From an uncultured Actinomycetota bacterium (GTDB lineage Bacteria; Actinomycetota; Actinomycetes; Actinomycetales; Kineosporiaceae): 64,000 nucleotides of DNA. Both the position numbers and the translations under genes were made by a program. The notes beneath the pieces are model-generated. The model had not been told where the DNA came from, made no database searches, and saw only the letters and a list, made by a program, of their open reading frames with translations. The stretch is taken from the NCBI GenBank assembly GCA_963794075.1, contig CAWCCY010000005.1, positions 11,678 through 75,677 of the forward strand, read 5' to 3'. Of this stretch, positions 22,176 to 64,000 are shown in pieces. Numbering within the stretch: the first letter of the stretch is position 1; each line of letters opens with the position of its first letter.

Positions 22176-25100
22176 TCAGACGAGGCAGCTCGGCCCGAGC
22201 AGGGCCTTCAGGTCGCCGAAGAGCGCCGGTGTGGGGGCGACGCGGAGCCCGTCGTCGAGACGCATCAGCGTCGTGCGCCCGCTCTGGGTGAGGCGCAGGT
22301 GCACCTCGGTGGGGCCCGGGTGGGTGGCCAGCACGTCCTTGAGGCGCTCCACGACGGGCGGCGTGCACCGCGTCACCGGCAGCGAGACCACGACAGGGCC
22401 GCGCGGCCCTTCGTCGAGGTCCGGCAGAGTGAGCTCGGCCGCGTAGATCGTGGGGACGTCGTCACGCCGGTTCACCCGCCCACGGACGACGACGACCAGG
22501 TCCTCCGCGAGGACGTGCGAGACGGTCTGGTACGCCTGCGGGAAGAACAGGACCTCGATGGCGCCGTCCAGGTCTTCGACGGTGGCGATGGCCCACGGGT
22601 TGCCGTTCTTGGTCATCTTGCGCTGCAGGCGAACTGATCATCCCCGCGATCGTGACGGTGGCGCCGTCGGGCCGGCCGTCGTCGGCCGTGAGCGCGGCGA
22701 TCGGGGTGTCGGCCGCCCGGGCGAGGATGTGCTCGACGCCGAAGAGCGGGTGGTCGCTCACGTAGAGGCCGAGCATCTCGCGCTCCGACGAGAGCAGGGT
22801 CTGCTTGTCCCACTCCCCCTCGGGTACCGGGGGCACCACGGACAGGCTGGGCCCGTCGCCGTCGAGGCCGCCGAACAGCGAGTCCTGCCCGATGGCCTCC
22901 TGGCGCTTGTCGGACGACCACGGCGTCGACGGCGCCCTCGTGCACCGCCACCAGACCGCGCCGGGTGTGCCCGAGGGAGTCGAACGCACCGGCCTTGATG
23001 AGCGACTCGATGGTCCGCTTGTTGCAGACCACGACCGGCACCTTGCGCAGGAAGTCCTCGAACGAGGCGTAGCGGCCCTTCTCTGCGCGGGCCGCCACGA
23101 TGGCGTCGACCACGTTCGCGCCGACGTTGCGGATCGCGGTGAGGCCGAAGCGGATGTCGGTGCCGATCGGGGTGAAGTTCGCCGCGGACTCGTTGACGTC
23201 GGGCGGGAGCACCTTGATGCCGAGCCGGCGGCACTCGTTCAGGTACAGCGCCGACTTGTCCTTGTCGTCCCGCACGCTCGTGAGGAGCGCCGCCATGTAC
23301 TCGGCCGGGTAGTTCGCCTTGAGATAGGCGGTCCAGTAGGAGACCAGGCCGTACGCCGCCGAGTGCGCCTTGTTGAACGCGTAGTCGGAGAACGGCACCA
23401 GGACGTCCCACAGCGCCTTGATCGACGCGGCGCTGAAACCGCGCTCCAGCATCCCCTGCTCGAACCCGACGTACTCGGCGTCGAGCACGGAGCGCTTCTT
23501 CTTGCCCATCGCCCGGCGCAGCAGGTCGGCCTTGCCGAGCGTGTACCCGGCGAGCTGCTGGGCGATGGCCATGACCTGTTCCTGGTACACGATCAGGCCG
23601 TACGTCGTACCCAGGATGGGCTTCAGCGCCTCGGCCAGGTCGGGGTGCAGGTAGGTGACCTCCTGCTGCTTGTTCTTGCGCAGGGCGTAGTTCGTGTGCG
23701 AATTGGCGCCCATCGGCCCGGGGCGGTAGAGGGCGCCGACGGCCGAGATGTCCTCGAAGTTGTCGGGCCGCATGAGCCGCAGCAGCGCCCGCATCGGGCC
23801 GCCGTCGAACTGGAAGACCCCGAGCGTGTCGCCGCGGGCGAGCAGGTCGTACGTGGCGGGGTCGGTCGGGTCCTTCGAGAGCTCGTCGAGGTCGATGTCG
23901 ACGTCGCGGTTGGCCTTCACGTTGACGAGCGCGTCGTCGAGGATCGTCAGGTTGCGCAGCCCGAGGAAGTCCATCTTGACCAGCCCGAGCGACTCGCAGG
24001 TCGGGTAGTCGAACTGCGTGATGATCTGCCCGTCCTGCTCGCGCCGCATGATCGGCACCAGGTCGATCAGCGGCTCGCTGGACATGATGACGCCGGCGGC
24101 GTGCACGCCCCACTGGCGCTTCAGGTTCTCGAGGCCGCGCGCCGTCTCGACCACACGGGCGACGTCGGGGTCCGACGCGTGCAGCTGGCGGAACTCCTCC
24201 GCCTCCTTGTAGCGGGGGTGCTCGGGATCGAAGATGCCCGACAGCGGGATGTCCTTGCCCATCACGGCCTGCGGCATGGCCTTCGTCATGCGCTCGCCGA
24301 GGGAGAACGGGTAGCCCAGCACGCGGCCGGCGTCCTTGAGGGCCTGCTTGGCCTTGATCGTGCCGTAGGTGACGATCTGCGCGACGCGGTCGTCGCCGTA
24401 CCGCTCGGTGACGTAGCGGATCACCTCGCCCCGCCGGCGCTCGTCGAAGTCGACGTCGAAGTCGGGCATGGACATGCGCTCGGGATTGAGGAAGCGCTCG
24501 AAGATCAGGCCGTGCTGGAGGGGGTCGAGGTCGGTGATCCGCATCGCGTAGGCGCACATCGAACCGGCACCCGAGCCACGGCCGGGCCCGACCCGGATGC
24601 CGTGCTCCTTGGCCCAGTTGATGAAGTCGGCGACCACCAGGAAGTAGCCCGCGTAGCCCTTGGACGTGATGACCTCGAGCTCGTACGCCGCCTGCTTGCG
24701 CACCGCGTCGGGGACGCCCTGGGGGTAGCGGCGATGGAGGCCTGCCTCGACCTCCTTGACGAACCAGGACTCCTCGTTCTCACCGGGGGGGCAGGGGAAG
24801 CGGGGCATGTACTGCCCCTCCCCCTCGGTGAACGTGACGTCGCAGCGTTCGGCGATGAGGAGGGTGTTGTCGCACGCCTCGGGGAGCTCGCGCCAGAGGT
24901 GGCGCATCTCCTGCGGGCTCTTGAGGTAGAACTCGTCGGCGTCGAACTTGAAGCGTTTCGGGGTCGGCGAGCGTCGACCCGGACTGCACGCACAGCAGGA
25001 CGGCGTGGGCCTGCGCGTCCTCCGCCCGGGTGTAGTGCAGGTCGTTCGTCGCGACGAGCGGCAGGCCGAGGTCGCGTGCCAGGCGCAGCAGATCCTGCTG

Positions 25101-26888
25101 GACGCGGCGCTCGATGCCGAGGCCGTGGTCCATGAGCTCGCAGAAGAAGTTCTCTGCGCCGAAGAGGTCGCGGAAGTCGGCGGCCGCCTCGCGAGCGGCG
25201 TCGTACTGGCCCAGGCGCAGCTTGGTCTGGACCTCCCCCGAGGGGCAGCCTGTCGTCGCGATCAGCCCCTCGCCGTAGGTCGCGAGCAGCTCACGGTCCA
25301 TCCGGGGCTTGTAGAAGTGGCCCTCGAGGCTGGCGAGCGAGGCCATCCGGAAGAGGTTGTGCATCCCGCCGGTCGTCCGGGCGAGCAGGGTCATGTGGGT
25401 GTAGGCGCCCGTGCCCGAGACGTCGTCCTCGCCGCCCTCGCCCCACCGCACCCGGGTGCGGTCGCGCCGGGCCGTGCCCGGCGTGATGTAGGCCTCGCAG
25501 TTGTGGAGGACGAAATCCGAGACGTAGGAGTTGTCCTCCTCGACCTCGAAGTTGAAGACCTCTGTGGCAAGGCGCTGACTGCGCACGGAGGCAATCGGGC
25601 GGTAAATGTAGTCGTCGTCCTCGATCGTCCGAGAGTACGAGCGACCGGGGTTCACGGAAAGGATGAAGTATTCCCGCTGCCCGGAACTCCGACCGCCAGG
25701 CAGCTTCGACTCGGCCGTTCCATGAGAGACAGCGCTCCATTGACCGAGGTCAGCGAGCAGGGTACGCATGCCCCACGCAAGGTTCTTCGACGCGACCTTG
25801 AGGTCTCGGCGCCCGCGCACGTTGCTTTCACGAAGAGGGTTCTTGCCGTCGCCGTCCAGAACGCCGTCGACGAAGCCTCGGCGAGCTTCGTGACTACCGA
25901 CGACCACCTGTGGTGGTACGCGTTTGGCGTGAGCACCCTCGCCGCACAACGCAGCGAACACGTGAGCAAGGGGAACACTGCACCCGTAGACATGGACGCC
26001 ACCACGCTCTGGACGCACGTGGACCGCGACTGTCACTCCCCACTCGGACACGATGTCCCGGAGTCGTTCTACGATCCAATGCTCATCCATACCCAGATGG
26101 AAGCCGAAGGTTCCGGTGAGCTGCCCGCCGACTCGGCCGACCGTGCCCTCTGCGCAGAAGAGTCCAAGAAGCCAGCCCGTCTCGTAATCAAGTGAAAGCT
26201 GCGCGGGAAACTGTTCCCACTGCTCGTTCGCGCGATACTTGGATTCGTAGCGACGAGCAACACCTACTGTCCCGTCGTCGCCAGGAGTAGAAAATGCACT
26301 GGGGACGAGGCTGACGACGTCTATAGAGTCGACCTCCTCGCTGAGCTTCGGCAGGCATGCGTAAGAGTTCCACTGGCGCACTCCGCCCTTGACGCCGGGT
26401 CTACCGGCGACCACGTCGCCGGGCTTGGACCAGTCGACCAACCCGTCTCGGCGCCGCACGAGGATCGGATGCTCCTCGGTAAGAGTCAGCGTTCGCGGAT
26501 GACGCCCTGCAAGTTGCACGTCGTACGCAACGCCTTCATATGGCCGGCGCATCGTGCGAAGGACGCGCCGGAAACGGCCTCGATGCGTCAGCACCAGGTC
26601 ACCGACCTCGATCTGCTCGACGGGGACAACCCCGTCTGCGGTGACGATCTCCTGACCTGCCAGGAGACAGCCGATGATCGGCTTGACGCCGTGCTTCTTC
26701 GCCTTCTGCCAGAACTCGTAGGCGCCGAACACGTAGCCGTGGTCGGTCGTCGCCACCGCGGGCATCCCCATCCGCGCGGCCTCGGCGAAGAGGTCGTCGA
26801 TCTTGGCGGCACCGTCGAGCATCGAGTACTCGGTGTGCACATGGAGGTGCACGAACGAGTCGCTGCTCGCGGACGGGCCGGTCGACAC
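22176..26888 (-). pseudogene. dnaE: DNA polymerase III alpha subunit DnaE1, intein-containing; three +1 frame breaks as sequenced
   Basis: Four colinear pieces. ORF 24780..27278 runs from GGAGG-N6-GTG 26888: VSTGPSASSDSFVHLHVHTEYSMLDG... intein ...[16 protein letters not shown] 22613..24907: ([17 protein letters not shown])[13 protein letters not shown]...[11 protein letters not shown]... ORF 22462..22989: [15 protein letters not shown]...[15 protein letters not shown] 22176..22616: (LQRK)[18 protein letters not shown]...LLGPSCLV. Breaks near 24959, 22912-22918 and 22618. Confidence 0.9.
25500..26669 (-). mobile_element. class-1 intein with LAGLIDADG homing endonuclease (390 aa) in the DnaE1 PHP domain
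   Basis: Junctions are ...GVKPIIG|CLLAGQEIVTADG... and ...SYVSDFVLHN|CEAYITPG... Block B is LTLTEEHPILV. LAGLIDADG motifs are GWLLGLFCAEGTV and RRGFVDGVLDGDGK. Locally lower GC than the flanks. Confidence 0.85.
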
Positions 26889-27337
26889 GGGGCGCCTCCA
26901 GGGGCATGGGCACCGGGCGCAGGCAGGAGAGCACGACGGGTCTCGTCGTGTCACCCGCGGGCGCGGGGCGGTACGGATCGCGCGCGCTGCCGGGGGAAGC
27001 CCGACGAGATGACACCGGAGACCGGCCCCTCGCCGAGCGGCTGCGCTCACGGCCCAGTCTAGGCAGCGGGCCCGACAGACGAGGCCGCGACCGAGGCGTC
27101 GCTGGAAGGCCCGGCGTGTCGTCGGGCGGCGGGTGCGGACGCCGGGGGGCAGGGATGGGCGCAGCGTCACCGGCCGCGGCCGGGAGTGACCGCCGAGCGG
27201 CCCGGCCGCGTCGCCGGCCGAAGGGTGATGTGTGGTCCACCCACGCGCCGCCGTCGTGTCGCCCGGGCTCGCTAGCATCGGCTGCAGGGGCGGTGGACGC
27301 AGCGGGCGGCCGCCGGGTCGGTGCGAGGGAGTCAGCG

Positions 27338-28589: not shown

Positions 28590-29732
28590 ATGACCGAGCC
28601 GGTTGCCGGGGCCCCCGGCCCCACCCCGGACGCCGCGGGCGCCGCGGTCCCCGCCGCGCGCCCGGGCAGCATGACGTTCCCCTGCTCCCAGTGCGGCGCC
28701 CGGTTGGAGTTCGCGCCCGGCACGTCGTCGCTGCGCTGCCCGTACTGCGGGCACCTCCAGGACGTGCCGGCGGCGACCGCCGTCATCGAGGAGCACTCCT
28801 TCGACGCCTGGGCGGCGCTGCCGCCGAAGCCCCGTGCGCCCGCGGGCGCCTACCGGCTCACCTGCCACCGCTGCGGTGCTCAGACCGACAGCGACAACCT
28901 CTCCGACAGCTGCCCCTTCTGCGGGGCGCCGATCGTCGCCGAGACGGCGGGCGGCGACCAGATCGCCCCCGAGGCGGTGGTTCCGTTCGGGATCGACCCG
29001 CGCGCCGCCCAGGACTCCGTGCGCGGCTGGGTCCGCTCGCGGTGGTTCGCCCCGAACAAGCTCAAGAAGGTGGGGGCCACCGAGCAGCTCCACGGCACCT
29101 ACCTGCCGCACTGGACGTACGACGCCGCCACGGCGACCGACTACGCGGGGATGCGGGGCGAGCACTACTGGGAGACCGAGACCTACAGCGAGAACGGCGA
29201 GACGAAGACCCGCGAGGTCATGCGCACCGCCTGGTACGGCGCCTCCGGGCACGTCGAGCGCGCCTTCGACGACGTCCTCGTGCCCGGCTCGACACGGCTG
29301 TCGCCCGAGCGCGTCCAGCAGCTCGCGCCGTGGCCGCTGGAGCGCGCCGTCTCCTACCAGCCCGACTACTTGTCGGGGTACCAGACGCTGCGCTACGACG
29401 TCGAGCCCGACCAGGGGCTGGCCGCCGCGAAGCAGCAGATGGAGCAGGTCATCGAGGGCGACTGCCGCGACGACATCGGCGGCGACGAGCAGCGCGTGAA
29501 CTCGATGGACGTCCGCTACGCCGAGATCATGTTCAAGCTCGTGCTGCTCCCCGTCTGGATCGCCGCCTACCTCTACGCCGGCCGGACCTACCAGGTCTTC
29601 GTCAACGCCCACACCGGGCAGGTCGTCGGCGAGCGCCCGTACAGCATCCCGAAGATCGTCTCCGCGGCGCTGGCGGTGACGGTCGTGGTCGTCGCGGCGC
29701 TCGTCCTGTACGCGAGGTCCCGCCAGAGCTGA
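28590..29732 (+). CDS. double zinc-ribbon protein with C-terminal TM anchor
   Basis: ORF 28377..29732 trimmed to ATG 28590 (gaggag RBS). CSQCGARLEF...CPYCG and CHRCGAQTD...CPFCG. C-terminal helix IPKIVSAALAVTVVVVAALVLYA. Confidence 0.7.
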   Translation: MTEPVAGAPGPTPDAAGAAVPAARPGSMTFPCSQCGARLEFAPGTSSLRCPYCGHLQDVPAATAVIEEHSFDAWAALPPKPRAPAGAYRLTCHRCGAQTDSDNLSDSCPFCGAPIVAETAGGDQIAPEAVVPFGIDPRAAQDSVRGWVRSRWFAPNKLKKVGATEQLHGTYLPHWTYDAATATDYAGMRGEHYWETETYSENGETKTREVMRTAWYGASGHVERAFDDVLVPGSTRLSPERVQQLAPWPLERAVSYQPDYLSGYQTLRYDVEPDQGLAAAKQQMEQVIEGDCRDDIGGDEQRVNSMDVRYAEIMFKLVLLPVWIAAYLYAGRTYQVFVNAHTGQVVGERPYSIPKIVSAALAVTVVVVAALVLYARSRQS

Positions 29733-29793
29733 CCGCTCCCGCTCCTGCCGGAGCCGCCGCTCCCACGTCCGCCGGAGCCGGCGGCTGCGAGGC

Positions 29794-30720
29794 TCAGCTC
29801 GCCGCGAGCCGTTCGAGCGCCGTCGCCAGGTCCTGCGGGTACGAGCTCGTGAACTCGATCCACTGGTCGGTACCCGGGTGTGTGAACCCCAGCCGGACGG
29901 CGTGCAACCACTGCCGCGAGAGGCCGAGCTGCTCGGCGAGACGGGGGTCGGCGCCGTAGGTGAGGTCCCCCACGCAGGGGTGGCGCAGCGCCGCGAAGTG
30001 CACGCGGATCTGGTGGGTCCTGCCGGTCTCGAGGTGGATCTCGGTGAGGCACGCCGCGCGGAACGCCTCGAGCACCTCGTAGTGGGTCACGCTGGGCTTG
30101 CCCTCCGCCACGACCGCCCACTTGTAGTCGGCTGTGGGATGCCGCCCGATGGGGGCGTCGATGGTGCCGACGAGAGGGTCGGGGTGGCCCTGCACGAGGG
30201 CGTGGTAGGTCTTGTCGACGGTGCGCTCGCGGAAGGCCTGCTTGAGCCTGCTGTAGGCGTACTCGCTCTTCGCCACCACCATGAGCCCGCTGGTGCCCAC
30301 GTCGAGCCGATGGACGACGCCCTGCCGCTCGGCCGCTCCCGACGTGGCGATCCGGTAGCCCGCGGCGGCCAGCCCGCCGACCACGGTCGGGCCGGTCCAC
30401 CCGGGGCTGGGGTGGGCGGCGACCCCGACGGGCTTGTCGACGACGACGAGGTCGTCGTCGTCGTGCACGACGAGCAGCCCCGGAACGGGTTCGGGCGGGG
30501 CTGCGGGGACGGCGTCCGCGGGGTCGGGGAGGTCGACCTCGAGCCAGCTGCCGGGGCGCAGCCGCTCGCTCTTGGCGACCTCGCGGCCGTCGATCCGGAC
30601 GCGCCCGGCGTCGGCGAGCTCGACCACCGCCGAGCGGGACAGTCCGAGGAGGCGGGCGAGCGCGGCGTCGAGGCGCTCCCCCACGAGGCCGTCGGGCACC
30701 GGCAGCGAACGGGAGGTCAC
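29794..30720 (-). CDS. RluA/RluD-family pseudouridine synthase
   Basis: ORF 29794..30720. S4-like N-terminus ([17 protein letters not shown]), catalytic [21 protein letters not shown]. Confidence 0.9.
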
Positions 30721-31445
30721 TGGTGCCCCCGCGGTGCCTCGGCCTCGGAAGGGTCGGCGCCGGAGGTGCAGGCCTCCGCACTACCGGTGTCGGAGGTGCC
30801 GGCCTCCAAGGTGCCGGCGTCCGAGGTGCCGGCCTCCGAGGTGCCGGCCTCCGAGGTGCCGGCGTCCGAGGTGCCGGCGCCCGAAGTGCCGGCGTCCGAA
30901 GTGCCGGCGTCCGAAGTGGCGGCGTCCGGCGGTGTGGTCCCGTCGAACCGCACGCCCCGCCAGGCGAGCAGCCCCAGCAGGGCGGCCGCCGTGGTGATCG
31001 CGGCGTCGGCGACGTTGAAGACGAACAGCCGGGGCAGGTCGATGAAGTCGACGACGTGCCCCTGCGCGAAGGCCGGCTCCCGGAACAGGCGGTCGAGCAG
31101 GTTGCCCACCGCACCGCCGAGCAGGAGCCCCAGCGCGAGGGCCCACCAGGCGCTCCCGAGGCGCCGGGACAGGCGCACGATCGCGACGCTGGCCGCGGTC
31201 GCGACCAGGGTGAAGATCCAGGTCGTGCCGGTGGCGAACGAGAACGCCGCGCCCGGGTTGCGGAACAACCGGAGCTGCACGGCCTGGCCGAGCACGTCGA
31301 CCGTGCTGCCGTCGGCGAGGCTCCTGACCGCCCACGCCTTGGTCAGCTGGTCGAGGACGACCACGACCACGGCCGTGGCCAGGAGACCCACGACGAGGGC
31401 GGTGCGGCGTGAGGGTTGGGCACGCCCGGCGGGGGTCTCGTCCAT
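30717..31445 (-). CDS. lspA: lipoprotein signal peptidase II with repeat-containing C-terminal tail
   Basis: ORF 30717..32132 trimmed to ATG 31445. [45 protein letters not shown]. Tail is (D/E)AGTS x about 8. GTGA overlap with the downstream gene. Confidence 0.9.
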
Positions 31446-32990: not shown

Positions 32991-33230
32991 GCTGGTCACC
33001 TCGCGGGAGAGACTAGATCGGCGGATCGGCGTCGCCGTGTCACCGTATCGGATGCCGGTGGGGTAAACGAACAGCTGCCGGCCGGGGAACGGCCATGGAC
33101 TCTGAGTGACTGCGACAACACGGATAGTACATGGACGCGAGGCGTGAGCAAGGCACCGCGCAGGGCGCCGAGCATGGTCCGAACGGGTGGAGGAAGCGCC
33201 CCGACCCTGCCCCGAACTGGGGGGATGCGC

Positions 33231-33521
33231 TCAGGGCGCGAGGATGCCGAGCAGGATCACGGTCACGATGAAGATCACCGGGAACGCGAGGTCCAGCGCG
33301 ACAGCGCCCAGCCGGATCGGCGGCAGCAACCGGCGCAGCGTCTTCACGGCGGGATCCGTGGCCGAGTAGGCACCCTCGGCGAGAACGAGGACGGGCCCGC
33401 GGGGGCGCCACTCGCGCGAGAAGTACTGGATCCAGTCGAAGACCAGCCGCACGATGAGCGCGATGAAGAAGAGGAAGACCACGAGGTAGAGCACGGTTCG
33501 GACCGCGTCGATCGGCGTCAC
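33231..33521 (-). CDS. yggT: YggT-family membrane protein
   Basis: ORF 33231..33605 trimmed to GTG 33521. VTPIDAVRTVLYLVVFLFFIALIVRLVFDWIQYF...DPAVKTLRRLLPPIRLGAVALDLAFPV. Confidence 0.8.
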   Translation of the reverse strand: MTPIDAVRTVLYLVVFLFFIALIVRLVFDWIQYFSREWRPRGPVLVLAEGAYSATDPAVKTLRRLLPPIRLGAVALDLAFPVIFIVTVILLGILAP

Positions 33522-33672
33522 GGGTCGGGGGTTCCCATCGGTGGGGGCACGCCTGCCGCGGACGGCGACATGCGAGGGCGGACCCCCCGATGGTAGAGCG
33601 GGCACCGCCGACGTCGTCGGCTGGCGTCGACGGTGCGGGCGGCGCCCGGCAGACCGGTGACTCCGGTCGAGC

Positions 33673-34193
33673 TCAGCTCTGGTTGAAGAAGGTCCGCTCG
33701 GGCACGTGCTGGGGCTTCTCGGCCGGCGTGACCTCGACGTGCGACGGCGACAGCAGGAAGACCTTGCTCGTCACCTTCTCGATGGCCCCGTGCAGGCCGA
33801 AGACGAGGCCGGCCGCGAAGTCGACCAGGCGCTTGGCGTCGGCGTCCGCCATGTCCCCGAGGTTCATGATGACCGGGGTCCCGACCTGAACGACTCGCCG
33901 ATCGTCTTCGCCTCGTTATACGTGCGGGGGTGGATCGTCGTGATGCGGTGGAGCTCTCCCATCGGAGCCGGCGCGGGCACGACACGCGCAGCCCGGGCAC
34001 TCGCGATCGGGGTCACCGCGGCGCGGCGCTCCAGCTCACGCGGTTCGGGGCGCCGTGGCTCCTCGATCGTGTCGTCGGCCACCTCGTCCTCCGCCTCGTA
34101 CTCCGGGTCGTCCTCGGCGTCGTAGGCGTCGTACCGCTCGTCGTCCTCGGCGAGGCCCAGGTACACCATGGTCTTACGTAGCGCGCCGCCCAT
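33673..34193 (-). pseudogene. sepF: cell-division protein SepF, one frame break (G-run one base short) as sequenced
   Basis: ORF 33864..34217 (MGGALRKTMVYLGLAEDD...[20 protein letters not shown]) continues in ORF 33673..33867 ((GTPVI)[32 protein letters not shown]). Break at the ccc run, 33880-33882. Confidence 0.85.
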
Positions 34194-34232
34194 CGGTGCT
34201 CCTTGCCTCGTCGTCACCCACGGTCGTGGACG

Positions 34233-34976
34233 TTACCTGAGCGTCGGGCGCGCACCGAGGATCGCGGTCCCGACACGCAGGTGTGTCGCGCCGGACGCGA
34301 CCGCCGCCTCGAGGTCTCCGCTCATGCCGGCCGAGAGGACGTCAGCCTCGGGGGCGTACCGGGCGGCCCGCTCGAGCAGCCCGGGCAGGGCCGCGAACGC
34401 GCGGGTGGGATCGGCGTCGAGCGGGGCGACGGCCATGACGCCGCGCAGGCGCAGCGACGCGGCGTCGGCGACCGCGGCGGCCAGCGCGTCGAACCCGTCC
34501 ACGGCCACGCCACCGCGCCCGGTGTCGCCGTCCAGGCTGACCTGGACCAGGCAGTCGAGCCGGCGGCCCGCCGCGTGGGCGCCCCGGTCGAGCGCGCCCA
34601 CCAGCGCGGGCCGGTCGACGGAGTGGACCATGTCGGCGTAGCGGGCCACCGAACGCGCCTTGTTCGACTGGAGCCGCCCGATGAAATGCCAGCGCAGGTC
34701 CAGGCCGGCGCACTCCCCGTGCTTCGCAGCCGCCTCCTGGTCGCGGTTCTCGCCCACGTCCCGGACGCCGAGGCCCGCGAGCAGGGCGACGTCGGAGGCG
34801 GGATGTGTCTTGGTGACGACGACGAGGGTGACGTCCTCGTCGTGGCGCCCGGCCTGCCGGCACGCCTCGCTCACCCGGGCGCGCACCGCCGACAGCCGCA
34901 CTGCCAGCTCGGCTCGCCGGTCGGAGCCGGGCGCGACGGCGTCCGCGCCGTGGGACGGGGCTGGGGGAGAGGTCAT
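34233..34976 (-). CDS. yggS: YggS-family PLP homeostasis protein
   Basis: ORF 34233..35657 trimmed to ATG 34976. LVVVTKTHP, FGENRDQE-like VGENRDQEA, WHFIGRLQSNKA, LSAGMSGD. Confidence 0.9.
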   Translation of the reverse strand: MTSPPAPSHGADAVAPGSDRRAELAVRLSAVRARVSEACRQAGRHDEDVTLVVVTKTHPASDVALLAGLGVRDVGENRDQEAAAKHGECAGLDLRWHFIGRLQSNKARSVARYADMVHSVDRPALVGALDRGAHAAGRRLDCLVQVSLDGDTGRGGVAVDGFDALAAAVADAASLRLRGVMAVAPLDADPTRAFAALPGLLERAARYAPEADVLSAGMSGDLEAAVASGATHLRVGTAILGARPTLR

Positions 34977-35761
34977 GGCAGCAGGGTGACGACGCCGGCG
35001 AACCGGCCGGTGACGGCGGCGCGGCGGTAGGAGTACAGGGATGGGTCCTCGATGGTGCACCCGCCGACGGGCTCGACGTGTGCCAGGCCGAGCGCGGTGA
35101 GCTCGGCGACCGCTCCCGCCCGCAGGTCGAGCGCGGGGGTGCCCCAGCTCGTCGTTGACCGCAGCTCGGGCCGGGCGGCGACGGCCTGCGCCTGCAGCTC
35201 GGCCGGCACCTCGTAGCAGCAACCACCGGCGGCGGGGCCGATCGCCGCGCGGATGGCGCCCGGGTGGGCGCCGCGGGCGGCCATGGCGGAGACGACCTCC
35301 GTCAGCACGCCGGCGAGCAGGCCCCGGCGGCCGGCGTGCGCGGCGGCCACGACGCCGGCGGCGGCATCGGCGAGCAGCACGGGCACGCAGTCGGCCACGA
35401 GCACACCCAGCGGGAGACCGCGCCGAGCGGTGACGAGGCCGTCGGCCTCGGGCCCGTCGTCGTCGCCGGGGGCGAGGGGGTCCTGCGTGGGGGCCGGCCA
35501 CTCGGCGGCGGCGTCCGCGGGGTCGAGAACGGTGGTGCCGTGGACCTGGCGGGCGAACCGGACCGGCCCGCCCGCCCAGCCCGCGAGGACGCGGCGGTTG
35601 CGACGCACCGCCGCGGGGTCGTCGCCCACGTGGAGGGCGAGGTCGAAACCGCCCCACGGGCCGCGCGAGGTGTCGCCGGCCCCGCTCGTGAACCCGGCCC
35701 GGACCCCCGGGCCGAGGTCGACGGCGACGACGGGGGCCGGGACGACGTCGTTGAGCTGCAC
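34973..35761 (-). CDS. pgeF: peptidoglycan editing factor PgeF (YfiH/laccase-domain protein)
   Basis: ORF 34973..35761. QVHGTTV, ADGLVT, LGVLVADCVPVLL, AAHAGRRG, IGPAAGGCCYEV. ATGA overlap with yggS. Confidence 0.85.
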   Translation of the reverse strand: MQLNDVVPAPVVAVDLGPGVRAGFTSGAGDTSRGPWGGFDLALHVGDDPAAVRRNRRVLAGWAGGPVRFARQVHGTTVLDPADAAAEWPAPTQDPLAPGDDDGPEADGLVTARRGLPLGVLVADCVPVLLADAAAGVVAAAHAGRRGLLAGVLTEVVSAMAARGAHPGAIRAAIGPAAGGCCYEVPAELQAQAVAARPELRSTTSWGTPALDLRAGAVAELTALGLAHVEPVGGCTIEDPSLYSYRRAAVTGRFAGVVTLLP

Positions 35762-35775
35762 CCCTCGAGCGTGCC

Positions 35776-37353
35776 CTACTTGAGGAAGTCGGGGACGTCG
35801 AGGTCGTCGTCGATGACGATCGGGCGGGGGGTCGGCCGGGCGGCGGGGCGAGGCTCGTGCGGCAGCTCGACGAAGCGCCCGCCCTGCTCGTGCACGACGG
35901 CCGGCTCGCGGTCGGGCTGCGGCTGGGGCTGCTGCGGCTGGTGCTGGGCCGGCTGCTGCGGCGCGTGCTGCTGCTGCTGCTGCGGGGCGTGCTGCTGAGG
36001 CGCGTGCTGCTGGGACGCCTGCTGCTGCGGCTGGGCGGAGGGGTAGGAGCCGTTGGTGCCCGACCCGGCCGGCGGGCCGAGCGGTGCCCCCGTGACCGGG
36101 GGCGTCACGGGCGGCAGACCGGCGGGGGCGGAGCCGTTGGCGCCCACCGGCGCGGCCTCGGAGGTGCGGTACTCACCCAGGCCACGCCGGGCGGGCTCGG
36201 CCGGGGCGGGCTGCCCGTATCCGCGGTGCTCCCCGTAGGGCGACGCGTCGAGCGGCTGGGGCCGGCCGGGCGAGCCGGCACCGTTGGCCGAGCTGGTGGC
36301 GCCGGCGCCGACCATCGGGCGGCCGGGGGCGGCCGGCGCCGCCGGCGCGGGCACGCTGCGGCCGGACACCTGACCGAGGGCTCGCTCGTCGCGCCGGCGC
36401 GTGGGGGCACCCCCGTCGAAGCCGGCGGCGATGACGGTGACACGCACCTCGTCACCGAGGGCGTCGTCGATGACCGCGCCGAAGATGATGTTGGCCTCGG
36501 GGTGCGCGGCCTCCTGGACCAGCCGGGCCGCCTCGTTGATCTCGAACAGGCCCAGGTCGGAGCCGCCCTGGATGGAGAGGAGGACGCCGTGGGCCCCGTC
36601 GACGCTCGCCTCGAGCAGCGGGCTCGAGATTGCGGTCTCGGCGGCCTGGATCGCGCGGTCCTCGCCGCGCGCCGAGCCGATGCCCATGAGCGCGCTGCCG
36701 GCGCCCTGCATGACCGACTTCACGTCGGCGAAGTCGAGGTTGATCAGGCCCGGCGTGGTGATGAGGTCGGTGATGCCCTGGACGCCGGAGAGCAGCACCT
36801 GGTCGGCCGAGCGGAAGGCGTCGAGCACGCTCACGTGCTTGTCGCTGATCGACAGCAGCCGGTCGTTGGGGATCGTGATGAGGGTGTCGACCTCTTCGCG
36901 CAGGCCCGTGATCCCCGAGTCCGCCTGGGTGGCGCGGCGGCGGCCCTCGAAGGTGAAGGGACGGGTGACGACACCGATCGTGAGGGCGCCGAGCGAGCGG
37001 GCGATGCGCGCGACGACGGGAGCGCCGCCCGTGCCGGTGCCGCCGCCCTCGCCCGCGGTCACGAAGACCATGTCGGCGCCCTTGATGACCTCTTCGATCT
37101 CCTCCGCGTGGTCCTCGGCGGCCTTGCGGCCGACCTCAGGATCCGCGCCGGCGCCGAGACCGCGCGTGAGCTCGCGGCCGACGTCGAGCTTGACGTCGGC
37201 GTCGCTCATGAGCAGCGCCTGCGCGTCCGTGTTGATCGCGATGAACTCGACGCCCTTGAGCCCGACCTCGATCATGCGATTGACGGCGTTGACGCCGCCG
37301 CCGCCGATACCGACGACCTTGATGACGGCAAGGTAGTTCTGAGGTGCAGCCAC
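35776..37353 (-). CDS. ftsZ: cell-division GTPase FtsZ (long Q/P-rich linker)
   Basis: ORF 35776..37353. [44 protein letters not shown]-terminal [17 protein letters not shown] before the GTG start. Confidence 0.97.
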
Positions 37354-61003: not shown

Positions 61004-64000
61004 TCACCGGCCCGAGCTCCCGGGGCTCGCGTGCCAGAGCTTGCGCGGTGCTTCGCCGCGGCGGCGGTCCGCACGGTCCTGCGAGGTCTCGGCGGCGGTC
61101 ATCCGGCGCGTGTCCCGGGTCTGCTCGCCGGGGGTCCCCACGTCGGCGTACGGCGACTGGCGGTACCCCGTGGCGTGCTCGACCAGCACCCGGCGGTACC
61201 CCGGACCGCCACCCATGCCGCCCGCCCGGCGCTGGCCGCGCCCCCGTTCCCGCCCGCGGCGGCCGCGGCGGCCGCGGGCCGCCTCGGGTCGTCCCGGTCG
61301 CCGACCGGGAGCCCGGAGGCCGCGACCTCCTGCTCACGGTCGTAGGGCGCGTCGATGCTGACGCCGAACTCGGTGACCGGCGGTCGGGCGAGCACCGGCC
61401 TGGCCGAGTGGCTGGCGGCGGCGCCCGTCACCGCCGCCGGGGTGGCACCGGCCCACCCGGGCGTCGCGTCGAGCAGGGCGCTGACGGCCTCGCGGCCGCC
61501 GTCGATCCAGGCGTCCCACAGCACGGGCAGCTCCCAGGCACCGGTCGCACGCAGGCTGACCCCGCGGGGGCCGGTGCGCCGGAGCACCCCGCGCACGACG
61601 AGGAGCCAGGAGTGGAACACGGTGGCCGCGTACGGCCCCTGCACGTCCTCGAAGAAGGTCGCGTCGACCGGGCCGGTCGCGTCGTCGAGGGTGAGGAAGA
61701 CGACCCGGCGCCCCGAGCGGATCGGCGGGGTCTGGGTGGCGACCTTGACGCCGGCGACGAGCAGGTCGGCCCGGCTGCGCCGCTGCAGCAGATCGCGGGA
61801 GCGCGTGACGCCGAGCGCGTCGAGCAGCGGGCCGTAGAAGTCGAGCACGTGCCGGCTGGCGTCCAGGCCCAGCACCTCGAGCTCGGCCCGGACCCGCTCG
61901 GCGCCCGTCATCTCGGCCAGCCCCGCGGGCGCGGGTCTCGTCGGGCGCGTCGCCGAGGTCGAGGGCGAGCTGCACGGGCTGCAGCCGCGCCGGCGGCGCG
62001 GCCGCGGAGCCTGCGACTGGCGGGCGGCCGCCGCGCGGACGACGTCCGGCGCCTCGGTCGCCGGCGCCGAGGCTCGCGGCCCGCGCCTGGCCGCGTGCCG
62101 CGTGCCGGGAGCCGCGCACGCCGCGCGTGCGCCCGCGGTCGGCGGCACGGGTCCAGCGGTCGAGCTCGGCGACCTGGAGCAGCAGGTCGCGCCGGGTGAC
62201 CCGGCCGCGGCGGCGGACGGGGACCGGCGACCCGAGGCCGTAGAGGGTGTCGAAGCCGCCGGCCACGACGAGCCGCTCGACGACCGGGCGGGACACCCCG
62301 GCGCGGTGCCAGAAGTCGGCGAGCGAGTGGTAGGGCCGGCCCGCGACGATCCGCTCGACCTCGGCGTCGGTGATGCCCTTCACGTCGGCGAGGGAGAGCC
62401 GGATGCCGTAGGCGCGCCCGTCGGGCAGGTCGGGATGCGCGGCGCTCCGCGCGGCGGCTCGGGGTCCCCGAGCTGGTCAGGACCCGCGGCGGCGGCTCGT
62501 CCCACCAGGTCACCTTCTCGACGCGGTAGGTCGCCTGGGAACGGTTGACGTCGAGCGGCAGCACGGCGATGCCGAGGTTGCGGGCGTCGTCGAGGATCAG
62601 CCGCTTGGGGTACATCCCGGGGTCGTGGGTGAGCACGCCGGCGAGGAACGCCGCCGGGTGGTGCGCCTTGAGCCAGGCGGACTGGTACGTCGGCAGCGCG
62701 AAGGCCGCGGCGTGCGCCTTGCAGAACCCGAACGAGGCGAAGGCCTTGAGCACCTCCCAGACCCGGTCGACCGTCGCCTCGTCGAAACCCTGCGCCGCGG
62801 GCCACGCGGGCGGAACCACTGCCTCGACCTCGGCCTGCCCCTCGCGGCTGCCGAGGGTGCGCCGGACCTCGTCGGCCTCGGCCAGCCCGCACCCGGTCAT
62901 CTCGTCGATGATCTCGCAGCACCTGCTCGTGGAAGACGACGACGCCGCCGGTCGGCGCCAGCGCCTGCTCCAGGCGCGGGTGCAGGTAGTCGGCGCTCGT
63001 CCCAGCCCTGCCGGGCCCGCAGGAACGGGGTGACCATGTCGGACTTCACCGGGCCGGGCCGGAACAGCGAGATGTCGATGACGAGGTCGAGGAAGGTCTC
63101 GGGGCCGAACTTGCCGACGAGCTCGCGCTGGCCCGGCGACTCGATCTGGAAGCAGCCGAGGGTGTGGGCGGTCCGGATCAGCCGGAACGTCGGCCTCGTC
63201 GTCGTGCGGGACGGCGTCGAGGTCGATCCGGCCGTGGCAGCGTCGAGGTAGGGCGCGTCGGGGCGTGGCCGCCGGCGCGACGCGTCGGCCCGTCGACCCG
63301 GGCGATCTCGTCGAGCGCGTACGCCATCGCCGACTGCATCCGGATGCCGAGGACGTCGAGCTTGAGCAGCCCCATCTGCTCGACGTCGTCCTTGTCGAAC
63401 TGGCTCATCGGGAAGCCGAGCCAGCTGGCCTCGACCGGGGTGCGGTCGAGCAGGCTCGCGTCGGAGATGAGGACCCCGCAGGGGTGCAGCGCGACGTGAC
63501 GGGGCAGCCCGTCGAGCCGCTCGACGAGGTCGAAGAGCACGTCGAGGCGCGACGAGGCGATGCCCGGAGGCACGCAGCTCGGGCAGCTCGACGAGGGCGT
63601 GCCGCACGTCGCGGGCCCGGATGTGCGGGAACGACTTGGCGATGACGTCGATCTCGCCGGGCGCAGGCCCGAGCGCGGCGCCGACGTCGCGGATGGCGTG
63701 CCGTACCCGGTAGGTGTCCATCATCGAGACGCAGGCGCACCCGGTCGGTGCCGAAGCGCTGCAGGATCGCCTCGTACACCTCGGTGCGGCGGGCGGACTC
63801 GACGTCGAGGTCGATGTCGGGCAGGGCGATGCGCAGCGGGGTGAGGAACCGTTCCATCAGCAGGTCGTAGCGGATCGGGTCGACGCCCGAGATGCCGAGC
63901 AGGTGGTTGACCAGGCTGCCGGCGCCGGACCCCCGGGCGGCGACCCGGACGCCGAGATCGCCGGACCGTCGCAGACCTCTTCGACGGTGAGGAAGTAGGA
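61004..64000 (-). pseudogene. dnaE2: error-prone DNA polymerase DnaE2 (5' end outside window), about ten frame breaks as sequenced
   Basis: Colinear DnaE2 sequence crosses the frames of ORFs 63405..63857, 62897..63724, 63178..63573, 61908..62900, 61334..62383, 61099..62148 and 61004..61216. In order: SYFLTVEEV.. GDLGVRVAARGSGAGSLVNHLLGISGVDPIRYDLLMERFLTPLRIALPDIDLDVES.. CVSMMDTYRVRHAIRDVG.. LDVLFDLVERLDGLPRHVALHPCGVLIS.. TLGCFQIESPGQRELVG..SLFRPGPVKSDMV.. VVVFHEQVL.. FGFCKAHAAAFALPTYQSAWLKAH.. VKGITDAEVERIV.. VKVATQTPPIRSGRRVVFLTLDDATGPVDATFF.. RRVLVEHATGYRQSPYADV...PRKLWHASPGSSGR*. Confidence 0.85.

Follow-up and report, generated by a model that had tools for sequence, protein, structure and literature searches.

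Novikova et al. (2016; Mol Biol Evol 33:783, PMC4760082) report 116 bacterial PolIII-alpha inteins with Actinobacteria among the host phyla, and their main text describes additional insertion points in the PHP domain without giving exact residues. As far as that main text goes, these PHP inteins have both host protein and host domain in common with the intein presented here. The cyanobacterial split DnaE inteins (Ssp DnaE, Npu DnaE) and Ter DnaE-3 are likewise hosted by PolIII-alpha and use the same class-1 chemistry with Cys1 and a +1 Cys. However, the main text (PMC4760082) describes them as split over two genes, devoid of an endonuclease and located in the finger domain, whereas the present intein is contiguous, carries an endonuclease domain and resides in the PHP domain, which rules out a naturally split intein of the cyanobacterial type. 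Tth DnaE-1 and -2 and Ter DnaE-1 and -2 are DnaE inteins that are likewise contiguous and contain (putative) endonuclease domains; some of these inteins splice in E. coli (PMC3620165, PMC3359363); none of them is found among the relatives of the present intein that we recovered. PI-SceI (yeast VMA1), PI-PkoII, TliVMA/PhoVMA and PI-PfuI share with it a two-domain layout, in which the Hint domain is interrupted by a LAGLIDADG domain; they belong to other host proteins, of archaea or yeast.

The element described here interrupts the dnaE1 gene of an uncultured, high-GC actinomycete in a stretch of 64,000 nucleotides, which was analysed as a whole and is termed the window. We are highly confident that the insert is a true class-1 intein of full length, in which a double-motif LAGLIDADG homing endonuclease is nested, and that it lies in the PHP (proofreading exonuclease) domain of the replicative polymerase DnaE1.

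Extent and anatomy of the intein

The intein occupies positions 25500-26669 of the minus strand (1170 nt) and comprises 390 aa from Cys1 to Asn390, without a stop or frame break in the translation of ORF 24780..27278 (-). The original prediction of a full-length class-1 LAGLIDADG intein at this place is borne out to the base, and every motif quoted in it is present. With a slash at each splice junction, the minus-strand translation reads ...KKHGVKPIIG/CLLAGQEIVTADG...(390 aa)...NSYVSDFVLHN/CEAYITPGTARRD. The features are as follows.

26670..26888 (-): dnaE1 N-extein, GTG start at 26888, 73 aa, C-terminal ...GVKPIIG
25500..26669 (-): complete intein (sequence, profile, homologue and structure-model evidence)
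26349..26669 (-): N-terminal splicing (Hint) region, about aa 1-107, with the Hint_2 match at aa 1-46
26631-26669 (-): block A CLLAGQEIVTADG, in the Hint region
26457-26492 (-): block B TLTLTEEHPILV, aa 60-71, with T64 and H67; T and H invariant in 12 relatives
25638..26348 (-): nested LAGLIDADG homing-endonuclease domain with linker/DNA-recognition region, about aa 108-344 (profile, AlphaFold, Foldseek and conservation)
26139-26177 (-): LAGLIDADG motif 1 GWLLGLFCAEGTV, aa 165-177, with E174; A-E-G invariant in relatives
25842-25883 (-): LAGLIDADG motif 2 RRGFVDGVLDGDGK, aa 263-276, with D274; G-D-G invariant in relatives
25500..25637 (-): C-terminal splicing region, about aa 345-390 (alignment with relatives)
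25521-25562 (-): block F EVFNFEVEEDNSYV, in the C-terminal splicing region
25500-25520 (-): block G SDFVLHN, terminal H389-N390, followed by the +1 Cys
22176..25499 (-): dnaE1 C-extein, +1 Cys at 25497-25499, stop codon at 22176-22178

The residues of a class-1 intein are in place: Cys1, which is conserved in all 20 same-site inteins (see below), the block-B motif T-x-x-H as T64-E-E-H67, and a C-terminal H389-N390 with Cys at +1. Both LAGLIDADG helices (GWLLGLFCAE174G and VDGVLDGD274G) end in an acidic residue; the claim that two motifs with their acidic residues are retained therefore holds. Block F departs from the consensus of many class-1 inteins, which have Asp and His at the positions of N373 and N380. 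All 12 aligned relatives keep N373, within VYNFEV or VYNIEV, and at position 380, N in the window intein, the family has either N or H. This deviation is probably tolerated, since it is common to relatives in intact DnaE genes.

Host gene and insertion site

The insertion point lies between G71 and V72 of M. tuberculosis (Mtb) DnaE1, one residue before the zinc ligand E73. In Mtb DnaE1, E73 is a ligand of both Zn1 and Zn2, and the substitution E73Q abolishes expression (PMC5636811). The N-extein represents the first PHP portion (PHP model positions 1-66) and includes residues matching Mtb H14, H16, D23 and H48 in the alignment to 7pu7_A; the corresponding protein of a sister contig (P0001 on contig L001) has the N-terminus MSTGPSASS.... 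The PHP domain is split between model positions 66 and 67, and right after the insert the match to the NCBIfam DnaE model PRK05673 picks up again at 67. In the C-extein, the Glu at +2 is the equivalent of Mtb E73 and is followed by the remainder of the PHP domain, and all DnaE1 domains are present in the order PHP, pol3_alpha, finger, HhH and OB. The middle dnaE fragment alone scores 1035 bits against NF004226/PRK05673 (cut-off 1002), versus 479 bits for the model of the error-prone DnaE2. A promoter and terminator scan of the dnaE region gave nothing above shuffled background.

The spliced exteins align with Mtb DnaE1 (7pu7/5lew) at E 6e-90 and without a gap at the junction. The flanks had been predicted to rejoin to the PHP motif KPIIG-x-EAYI, and they do, colinear with intein-less DnaE1. 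The opposite case, in which orthologues would carry colinear sequence here as an ordinary domain, was also checked; the orthologues lack the insert, and in P0049-P0054 as well as in Mtb DnaE1 the sequence runs through the junction as an ungapped KPIIG-[I/V/L]-EAY. The exact site (Mtb G71/V72) is not named in the literature searched, which included the main text of Novikova et al. (2016).

Domain profiles and predicted fold

Pfam Hint_2 matches the intein with 33.0 bits (cut-off 28.4) over aa 1-46 only; the expected Hint profile was thus recovered above the Pfam threshold. The LAGLIDADG profile came out less clearly: a match to LAGLIDADG_3 (PF14528) is present, at 20.1 bits (E 8e-4) and hence below the cut-off of 22.5 for the window copy. 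PF14528 is a precomputed match in most relatives of the intein. A sequence search of the PDB with the intein gave marginal matches only (PI-PkoII, E 2e-3), and a fold search was therefore needed. The AlphaFold (AF2) model of the intein has a pLDDT of 92.7 and a pTM of 0.91, and its endonuclease domain consists of two alpha-beta-beta-alpha-beta-beta-alpha halves related by two-fold pseudo-symmetry. The best PDB matches of this model in Foldseek are all endonuclease-containing inteins (7qsu, 2cw7, 1vde, 1dq3), with E 3e-16 to 4e-9 and TM 0.5-0.6 for PI-SceI, PI-PkoII, TliVMA/PhoVMA and PI-PfuI at 9-15% sequence identity. I-DmoI and I-Tsp061I come next (E 2e-5 to 2e-4, target TM ~0.65).

Distribution and composition

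Homologous inteins are found at exactly the same site (G/C...HN/CE) in at least 19 other genomes, isolates included. Hosts are Thermoactinospora rubra, Spirillospora spp., Actinomadura bangladeshensis, A. soli, Phytohabitans kaempferiae and Branchiibius; metagenome-assembled hosts belong to Nocardioidaceae, Acidimicrobiia, Saccharibacteria, Pyrinomonadaceae and Abditibacterium. The same-site inteins are 374-390 aa long, have the block sequences TEEHP, AEG, DGDG and VYNFEVEEDNSYVSDFxLHN in common and are 32-57% identical to the window intein, the nearest being 57% identical. Since these homologues in other DnaE proteins match at E 1e-140 to 1e-60 and at the same DnaE site, the motifs of the insert are beyond chance. 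At E<=1e-30 the family numbers 96 cluster representatives (50% identity). Comparison of family members gives dN/dS values of 0.06-0.16 for the splicing regions and of 0.13-0.22 for the endonuclease domain; these values were computed on relatives and not on the window copy, whose nearest same-site relative is 57% identical. The endonuclease domain has no deletions versus aligned relatives.

The hosts of same-site inteins are not the closest relatives of the window organism, whereas the closest relatives lack the intein: a Hint domain is present in 0 of the 120 closest extein relatives. The relative P0049 (contig L082), with an extein identity of 96%, reads KPIIG/IEAYV without an insert, and its intein-less dnaE site is 5'-GGCGTCAAGCCGATCATCGGCATCGAGGCGTACGTCACGCCG-3'. 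L082 might be taken for an intein-free strain of the window species, a reading that we rejected. With flanking genes that reach no more than 76-92% identity, L082 represents a related species and not a polymorphism of the same population.

The GC content is 0.624 in the intein, 0.696 in the rest of dnaE and 0.750 in the window, and GC3 is 0.705 in the intein versus 0.83-0.97 in the flanks. No other 1170-nt stretch of the 64 kb has a GC content as low as that of the intein, which lies about 3.9 SD below the mean; only 0.02% of all 1170-nt windows are as GC-poor, and all of these are the intein itself. That the insert is less GC-rich than its host gene had been noted in the original prediction, and the measured values agree. 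As for the horizontal acquisition deduced from it, the composition is indeed foreign, but low GC and patchy distribution are circumstantial and do not amount to proof.

Intein and extein identities are correlated across the family (r = 0.78). Some pairs are discordant, for example L002/L006 with 64% intein versus 47% extein identity, which is no more than suggestive of horizontal transfer. Contigs of phages in IMG/VR carry the same intein at the same DnaE site and may possibly act as vectors. In tblastn searches against isolate phages and plasmids no close vector was found; the only matches were ~25%-identical inteins in P1-like Dmt/Dam methyltransferases and jumbo-phage methylases.

Frame breaks and alternative readings

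The source of the window is a noisy long-read metagenome assembly, in which the reading frame of dnaE1 is interrupted three times.

24959 (-): frame break 1, one extra G; the window has GACCCCGAAACGCTTC (DPETLQ...), the G is missing from L001 and L082, where the translation is DPKRFKF
22916..22918 (-): frame break 2, two extra bases versus sister contig L001
22629 (-): frame break 3, one extra C versus sister contig L001

Taken at face value, these breaks would make dnaE1 a decaying pseudogene with real frameshifts and an intact intein relic, replication being carried out by another polymerase copy. This appears very unlikely. Every break is an insertion of 1-2 nt that is absent from L001 (break 1 also from L082), and away from the breaks dnaE reaches the above score against the DnaE equivalog model. 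The three breaks fall within a block where the window and L001, otherwise ~99.8% identical, differ by 6-14% with many indels. Such errors are general, since a second dnaE-like gene at 61100-63860 is broken up into no fewer than five frames and different breaks occur in L001, one of them inside the intein. We therefore attribute the three breaks to assembly errors and not to decay. The contrast drawn in the original prediction between an unbroken intein and a broken dnaE is accordingly correct as to the breaks themselves, but has no biological meaning, the breaks being private insertions. At ~0.9 breaks per kb about one would be expected in 1170 nt, and the intein would remain break-free by chance with P(0) ~0.37 (~37%); local assembly quality also differs for a technical reason. 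The clean frame as a sign of selection on the intein was rejected for this reason. The assembly is a mosaic directly 3' of the intein, which could also suggest a chimera with an intein misjoined to dnaE. We give this reading hardly any credence: each junction keeps the frame to the codon and restores the PHP motif, and the same junctions recur in L001/P0001, which is an independent assembly, as well as in 19 other genomes, isolates among them. Just as improbable is an ordinary lineage-specific DnaE1 domain, or an unexcised bacterial intein-like (BIL)/Hint module, for which the coverage of no more than the first 46 residues by Hint_2 could be adduced. Orthologues that are 68-96% identical lack the insert and are colinear across the site, complete class-1 junction residues are placed at an active-site motif, and the modelled fold matches canonical inteins end to end. 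An unexcised insert of 390 aa one residue from a zinc ligand would, moreover, disrupt the PHP barrel.

A more serious alternative concerns the endonuclease. Many bacterial inteins are in a degenerative phase of the homing cycle, with an endonuclease that is no longer homing, and the window intein may likewise splice as a vertically inherited passenger whose endonuclease is dead. In favour of this reading are the sub-threshold LAGLIDADG_3 score of the window copy, a GC3 that has already reached 0.70 and suggests long residence, and the 57% identity of the nearest same-site intein, which gives no sign of a very recent transfer from a sampled donor. On the other hand, both catalytic acidic residues and the full pseudo-symmetric fold are retained, the domain has suffered no deletions, purifying selection on it is family-wide, and the closest extein relatives are without the intein. 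We regard a dead endonuclease as a substantial possibility, though one that we would not favour. The sister contig, from the same kind of sample, bears on this question as well. Over 1.6 kb, a length that takes in the N-extein and the entire intein, 2 substitutions separate it from the window (~99.9% identity); at 13 nt past the intein/C-extein junction it switches to a divergence of 6-14%, up to the end of dnaE. The divergence in the C-extein is biased toward third codon positions and hence reflects real alleles. If biological rather than an assembly collapse, the divergent block might be a natural recombination footprint bounded by the insertion site, which we consider rather improbable. It would then point to co-occurring species with and without the intein that exchange sequence by homing or gene conversion, and thus to an endonuclease active in the community today.

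Proposed splicing and homing mechanism

The splicing steps are modelled on the established class-1 pathway. Translation of dnaE1 would yield a precursor of ~1570 aa with an interrupted PHP barrel. Cys1 would undergo an N-S acyl shift assisted by T64 and H67 of block B, and attack of the +1 Cys on the thioester would give a branched intermediate. Cyclisation of Asn390, assisted by H389, would release the intein, and an S-N shift would restore a normal peptide bond in ...KPIIG-C-EAYI.... Splicing must be efficient, because DnaE1 is essential and substitution of E73 abolishes the expression of Mtb DnaE1. The released intein, or the precursor, would act as a monomeric LAGLIDADG endonuclease with E174 and D274 as predicted catalytic residues. 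It is predicted to cut intein-less dnaE alleles across ...AAGCCGATCATCGGC/ATCGAGGCGTAC..., and repair from an intein-bearing allele would copy the element into the cut dnaE.

Significance

In actinobacteria, M. tuberculosis among them, proofreading is the task of the trinuclear zinc centre of DnaE1. The intein interrupts this replicase, which is essential, at a distance of one residue from a ligand of that centre; replication and its fidelity would therefore depend on post-translational splicing. Redox control of splicing via Cys1 and the +1 Cys is possible in principle, which is speculation. One practical gain is a further compact Cys1/Cys+1 intein, whose natural -1/+2 context is hydrophobic; another is a candidate LAGLIDADG rare cutter whose target is a highly conserved dnaE sequence. 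For annotation, entries such as 'PHP domain-containing protein, partial' or 'LAGLIDADG family homing endonuclease' in actinomycetes often represent a hidden intein-bearing dnaE1.

The kind of element, its host protein and its host domain have already been described, and the same intein is widespread at the same site in genomes and phages; the discovery is thus incremental. More intriguing than the intein itself are its splicing-dead, free-standing derivatives, which lie directly upstream of an intein-less dnaE in 4 of 4 unrelated contigs examined.

Anatomy of the insert and its host gene

Conceptual translation of the open reading frame 24780..27278 (minus strand) yields ...FVHLHVHTEYSMLDG...KKHGVKPIIG / CLLAGQEIVTADG ... 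NSYVSDFVLHN / CEAYITPGTARRD..., with slashes marking the borders of the insert. Script-derived limits place the intein at window positions 25500..26669 exactly (1170 nt, 390 codons, without stops or frame changes), which matches the unbroken span of the original prediction to the base. Every motif quoted there is present in the translation (Cys1, TxxH, both LAGLIDADG motifs, the terminal His-Asn and the +1 Cys), and its interpretation as an intein is real and correct. The probable start of dnaE1 is the GTG at 26888, giving an N-extein of 73 aa.

Features of the insert (intein residue numbers)
Intein, 25500..26669, minus strand
Block A, minus strand, begins at intein Cys1
Block B, minus strand, TLTLTEEHPILV, with T64 and H67
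LAGLIDADG motif 1, minus strand, GWLLGLFCAEGTV, with E174
LAGLIDADG motif 2, minus strand, RRGFVDGVLDGDGK, with D274
Block F, minus strand, EVFNFEVEEDNSYV
Block G, minus strand, SDFVLHN, with H389 and N390, followed by the +1 Cys

Judged by its sequence, the interrupted gene product is DnaE1. The PHP domain is interrupted at model position 66, and the NCBIfam equivalog PRK05673 picks up at 67 directly after the insert. The mid-gene fragment alone scores 1035 bits against PRK05673, versus 479 against the error-prone DnaE2 model, and the domains pol3_alpha, finger, HhH and OB follow downstream in this order. The conceptually spliced extein aligns with M. tuberculosis (Mtb) DnaE1 (7pu7_A, 5lew_A) at E 6e-90 and without a gap at the junction (gvkpiigCEAYItpg versus GIKPIIGVEAYIAPG), which bears out the proposed insertion into the PHP domain with rejoining flanks.

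Interruption of active-site strands is typical of inteins. Here the insertion point lies between G71 and V72 in Mtb numbering, with the +1 Cys in place of V72 and E73 next. Mtb E73 is a ligand of Zn1 and Zn2 in the trinuclear zinc centre of the PHP proofreading exonuclease, and expression of the protein is lost in the E73Q mutant (Banos-Mateos et al. 2017, PMC5636811). Being placed beside this zinc ligand, the intein breaks an active-site strand; an unspliced DnaE1 precursor could hardly function.

Domains, predicted fold and proposed mechanism

Pfam Hint_2 matches intein residues 1–46 above its cut-off (33.0 versus 28.4 bits), while LAGLIDADG_3 on residues 161–223 falls slightly below (20.1 versus 22.5 bits). 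Since a PDB sequence search with the intein returned almost nothing (PI-PkoII at E 2e-3), its structure was predicted from a 33-sequence alignment (mean pLDDT 92.7, pTM 0.91). The top 16 Foldseek matches of this model in the PDB are all inteins with nested LAGLIDADG endonucleases (E 3e-16 to 4e-9), among them TliVMA (7qsu), PI-PkoII (2cw7), PI-SceI (1vde/1ef0/1lws), PhoVMA (7qst) and PI-PfuI (1dq3), with which the window intein is predicted to share its fold; free-standing LAGLIDADG enzymes such as I-DmoI follow at about 2e-5. Pfam and fold matches together show that the element has the two domains expected in a canonical 'large' intein, and Cys1 assigns it to class 1, as had been proposed.

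Anatomy, fold, site, family membership and the existence of intein-less alleles are the established part of this account. Following the class-1 pathway, Cys1, with T64 and H67 assisting, would undergo an N-S acyl shift; the +1 Cys would enter trans-thioesterification, and Asn390 would cyclise with help from H389. A last S-N shift would then release mature DnaE1, in which Cys takes the place of Mtb V72. As to mobility, the intein-less site would be cut by the LAGLIDADG domain (E174, D274) and would acquire a copy of the intein during recombinational repair. Many inteins carry Asp and His at two positions of block F where this intein has Asn (N373 and N380). N373 is conserved in 12 of 12 aligned relatives, and position 380 is N or H across the family; as this includes intact dnaE genes of isolates, the deviation is probably tolerated.

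Relatives and distribution

In a word-indexed search, 5.8 billion proteins yielded 48 intein relatives, the best being DnaE N-terminal fragments with PHP, Hint_2 and LAGLIDADG_3 (51–57% identity); a 99%-identical copy (P0001) lies on ENA contig ERZ25039539:contig_81101. Scanning one genome per GTDB species gave 124 relatives. Junctions extracted from 19 loci all fall at the identical point, G/C...HN/CE. Isolate hosts with this site include Thermoactinospora rubra, Spirillospora spp., Actinomadura bangladeshensis, A. soli, Phytohabitans kaempferiae and Branchiibius; hosts known as MAGs include members of Nocardioidaceae, Acidimicrobiia, Saccharibacteria, Nealsonbacteria, Pyrinomonadaceae and Abditibacterium. 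The intein also occupies this DnaE site in IMG/VR phage contigs (133–494 kb, 29–48% GC); a search for a close copy in isolate phages and plasmids found none.

A sister group of the family uses a second PHP site, YKPR/C...HN/CDWELL, in Acidimicrobiales and Acidobacteria, so that a single intein lineage exploits two sites within one domain. The second-site loci (L016, L017, L019, L021–L023, L028 and L030, from MAGs of these groups) place it about 50 residues downstream of the window's site. Among 1.84 billion 50%-identity representatives searched exhaustively with HMMER, 96 match at E<=1e-30, and the matches usually begin at host residue ~65–75 or ~120, as expected for the two PHP sites. Remoter members reside in IMP dehydrogenase, ribonucleotide reductase and cytosine methylases.

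This kind of intein is already known: a survey that counted 116 PolIII-alpha inteins listed Actinobacteria as one host group and noted PHP-domain insertion points (Novikova et al. 2016, PMC4760082), and PolIII-alpha has been added as an intein host in actinobacteriophages (2025 preprint). Host protein and domain have both been reported and the same allele is widespread; the interest of this copy is modest.

Intein-less alleles and probable horizontal acquisition

Searching with the spliced PHP domain gave 4667 relatives; none of the best 120 (68–96% identity, including Angustibacter and Oryzihumus) contains a Hint domain. The closest extein relative among the matches listed, P0049, is 96% identical and reads KPIIG/IEAYV. 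Its contig, L082, has ...AAGCCGATCATCGGC/ATCGAGGCGTACGTC... versus ...ATCATCGGC/(intein)/TGCGAGGCCTACATC... in the window. The flanking genes of L082 are 76–92% identical to those of the window, which marks a related species and rules out the same strain without the intein. The +1 position is V or L in other intein-less relatives and Cys in every allele with the intein.

The lower GC content claimed for the insert is borne out by a sliding window: at 0.624, versus a mean of 0.750 (SD 0.032), the intein is the lowest 1170-nt stretch of the 64 kb, and its GC3 of 0.705 compares with 0.83–0.97 in the adjacent exteins. Intein and extein identities are loosely coupled among loci (r = 0.78). The closest intein-bearing extein (L029, 72%) holds an intein of only 50% identity, the closest intein (L002, 57%) interrupts an extein of 62% identity, and some locus pairs have inteins far more similar than their exteins. 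Between family members, dN/dS is 0.06–0.16 in the splicing regions and 0.13–0.22 in the endonuclease domain, the latter indicating past purifying selection. Together with the intein-less relatives, these data fit a partly ameliorated, horizontally acquired mobile element; we infer such an origin, in line with the original prediction, from composition and patchy distribution short of proof.

Frame breaks and the divergent block

Using the intact intein-bearing DnaE1 of Phytohabitans (L007) as query, tblastn resolves four frame segments in the window, placing the three previously noted breaks at ~24959, 22917 and 22629. Relative to L001, a sister contig carrying the same intein, the window has 1, 2 and 1 extra bases there, respectively. 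The first is missing in L082 too, which reads the expected ADPKRFKF. L001 is broken at other positions, among them 25799 within the intein, where the break truncates P0001. The contig_NNNNN names and fragmentary gene calls of L001 and L082 point to long-read metagenome assemblies. A second dnaE-like gene (~61100–63860, minus strand; 32–45% identity to DnaE1), probably error-prone dnaE2/imuC, runs off the window end in at least five reading frames, which shows frameshift errors to be a general feature of the assembly. With ~0.9 breaks per kb, chance alone would leave a 1170-nt intein unbroken in ~37% of cases; no biological message therefore attaches to the contrast originally drawn between a clean intein and a broken dnaE.

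Window and L001 are ~99.9% identical from 27094 to 25500, with just 2 substitutions and 1 indel across N-extein and complete intein. At 25487, after the first 13 nt of the C-extein, identity drops to 86–94%; it stays low through the rest of dnaE, down to ~21800, and then returns to 98–100%. All three frame breaks fall within this block. Its mismatches by codon position (40/23/96) are biased to the third position and so are real allelic differences; in a three-way comparison of the C-extein, window, L001 and L082 are roughly equidistant (119, 153 and 179 private changes). Similar blocks occur in the dcw cell-division cluster and rluD (window 33000–35800 and 29600–30800; 70–95% identity to L001, many indels), while less conserved stretches beside them are 98–100% identical. 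This pattern is the opposite of that expected from real divergence and consistent with a mixed-strain consensus in conserved genes. For the dnaE block we prefer an assembler collapse of the conserved part of dnaE from co-occurring intein-less relatives: as homology to these starts exactly at the insertion site, the collapse would account for both the sharp boundary and the three breaks inside the block. Real recombination bounded by the intein is a less probable alternative.

Derivatives and variant copies

Five ORFs of 340–402 aa (P0006, P0011, P0185, P0218, P0242) clearly descend from the DnaE-PHP intein family described here. They lack Cys1 and the final His-Asn, most have lost TxxH as well, and both LAGLIDADG acidic residues are kept. 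In all four contexts examined, the ORF stands free, 0–250 nt upstream of an intein-less dnaE.

Free-standing ORFs upstream of dnaE
L083:6001-7209, Spirillospora sp. CA-253888
L163:6001-7131, Logan contig SRR32573215
L164:206-1228, JGI 3300037810
L165:5001-6176, phage-like contig SRR28209420

The intein-less dnaE of L165 retains a Cys at what was once the +1 position. These arrangements may suggest repeated conversion of the intein into a free-standing homing-endonuclease gene beside its target, resembling the yeast WHO/HO elements (PMC7282813), and deserve separate study.

Microtetraspora sp. NBRC 16547 has a copy of this intein that is truncated at its 5' end and starts with block B (L013:6001-7038, P0007). 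Behind it come 12 residues of DnaE C-extein (CEAYVAPASRHH), after which the frame is lost; the copy is apparently left over from a partial dnaE/intein duplication. Protein P0012, on a 71.9 kb IMG/VR phage contig (L096), has the PHP-site intein, and its DnaE fragment ends in an extra stretch, …LSLKEVVERVKSGEEILTLSYDEDRNKVVFAKV…; precomputed Pfam Hint-type matches are listed for the protein without coordinates. This terminal stretch looks like the start of another, candidate intein, which, if true, would be a second one within the same polymerase.
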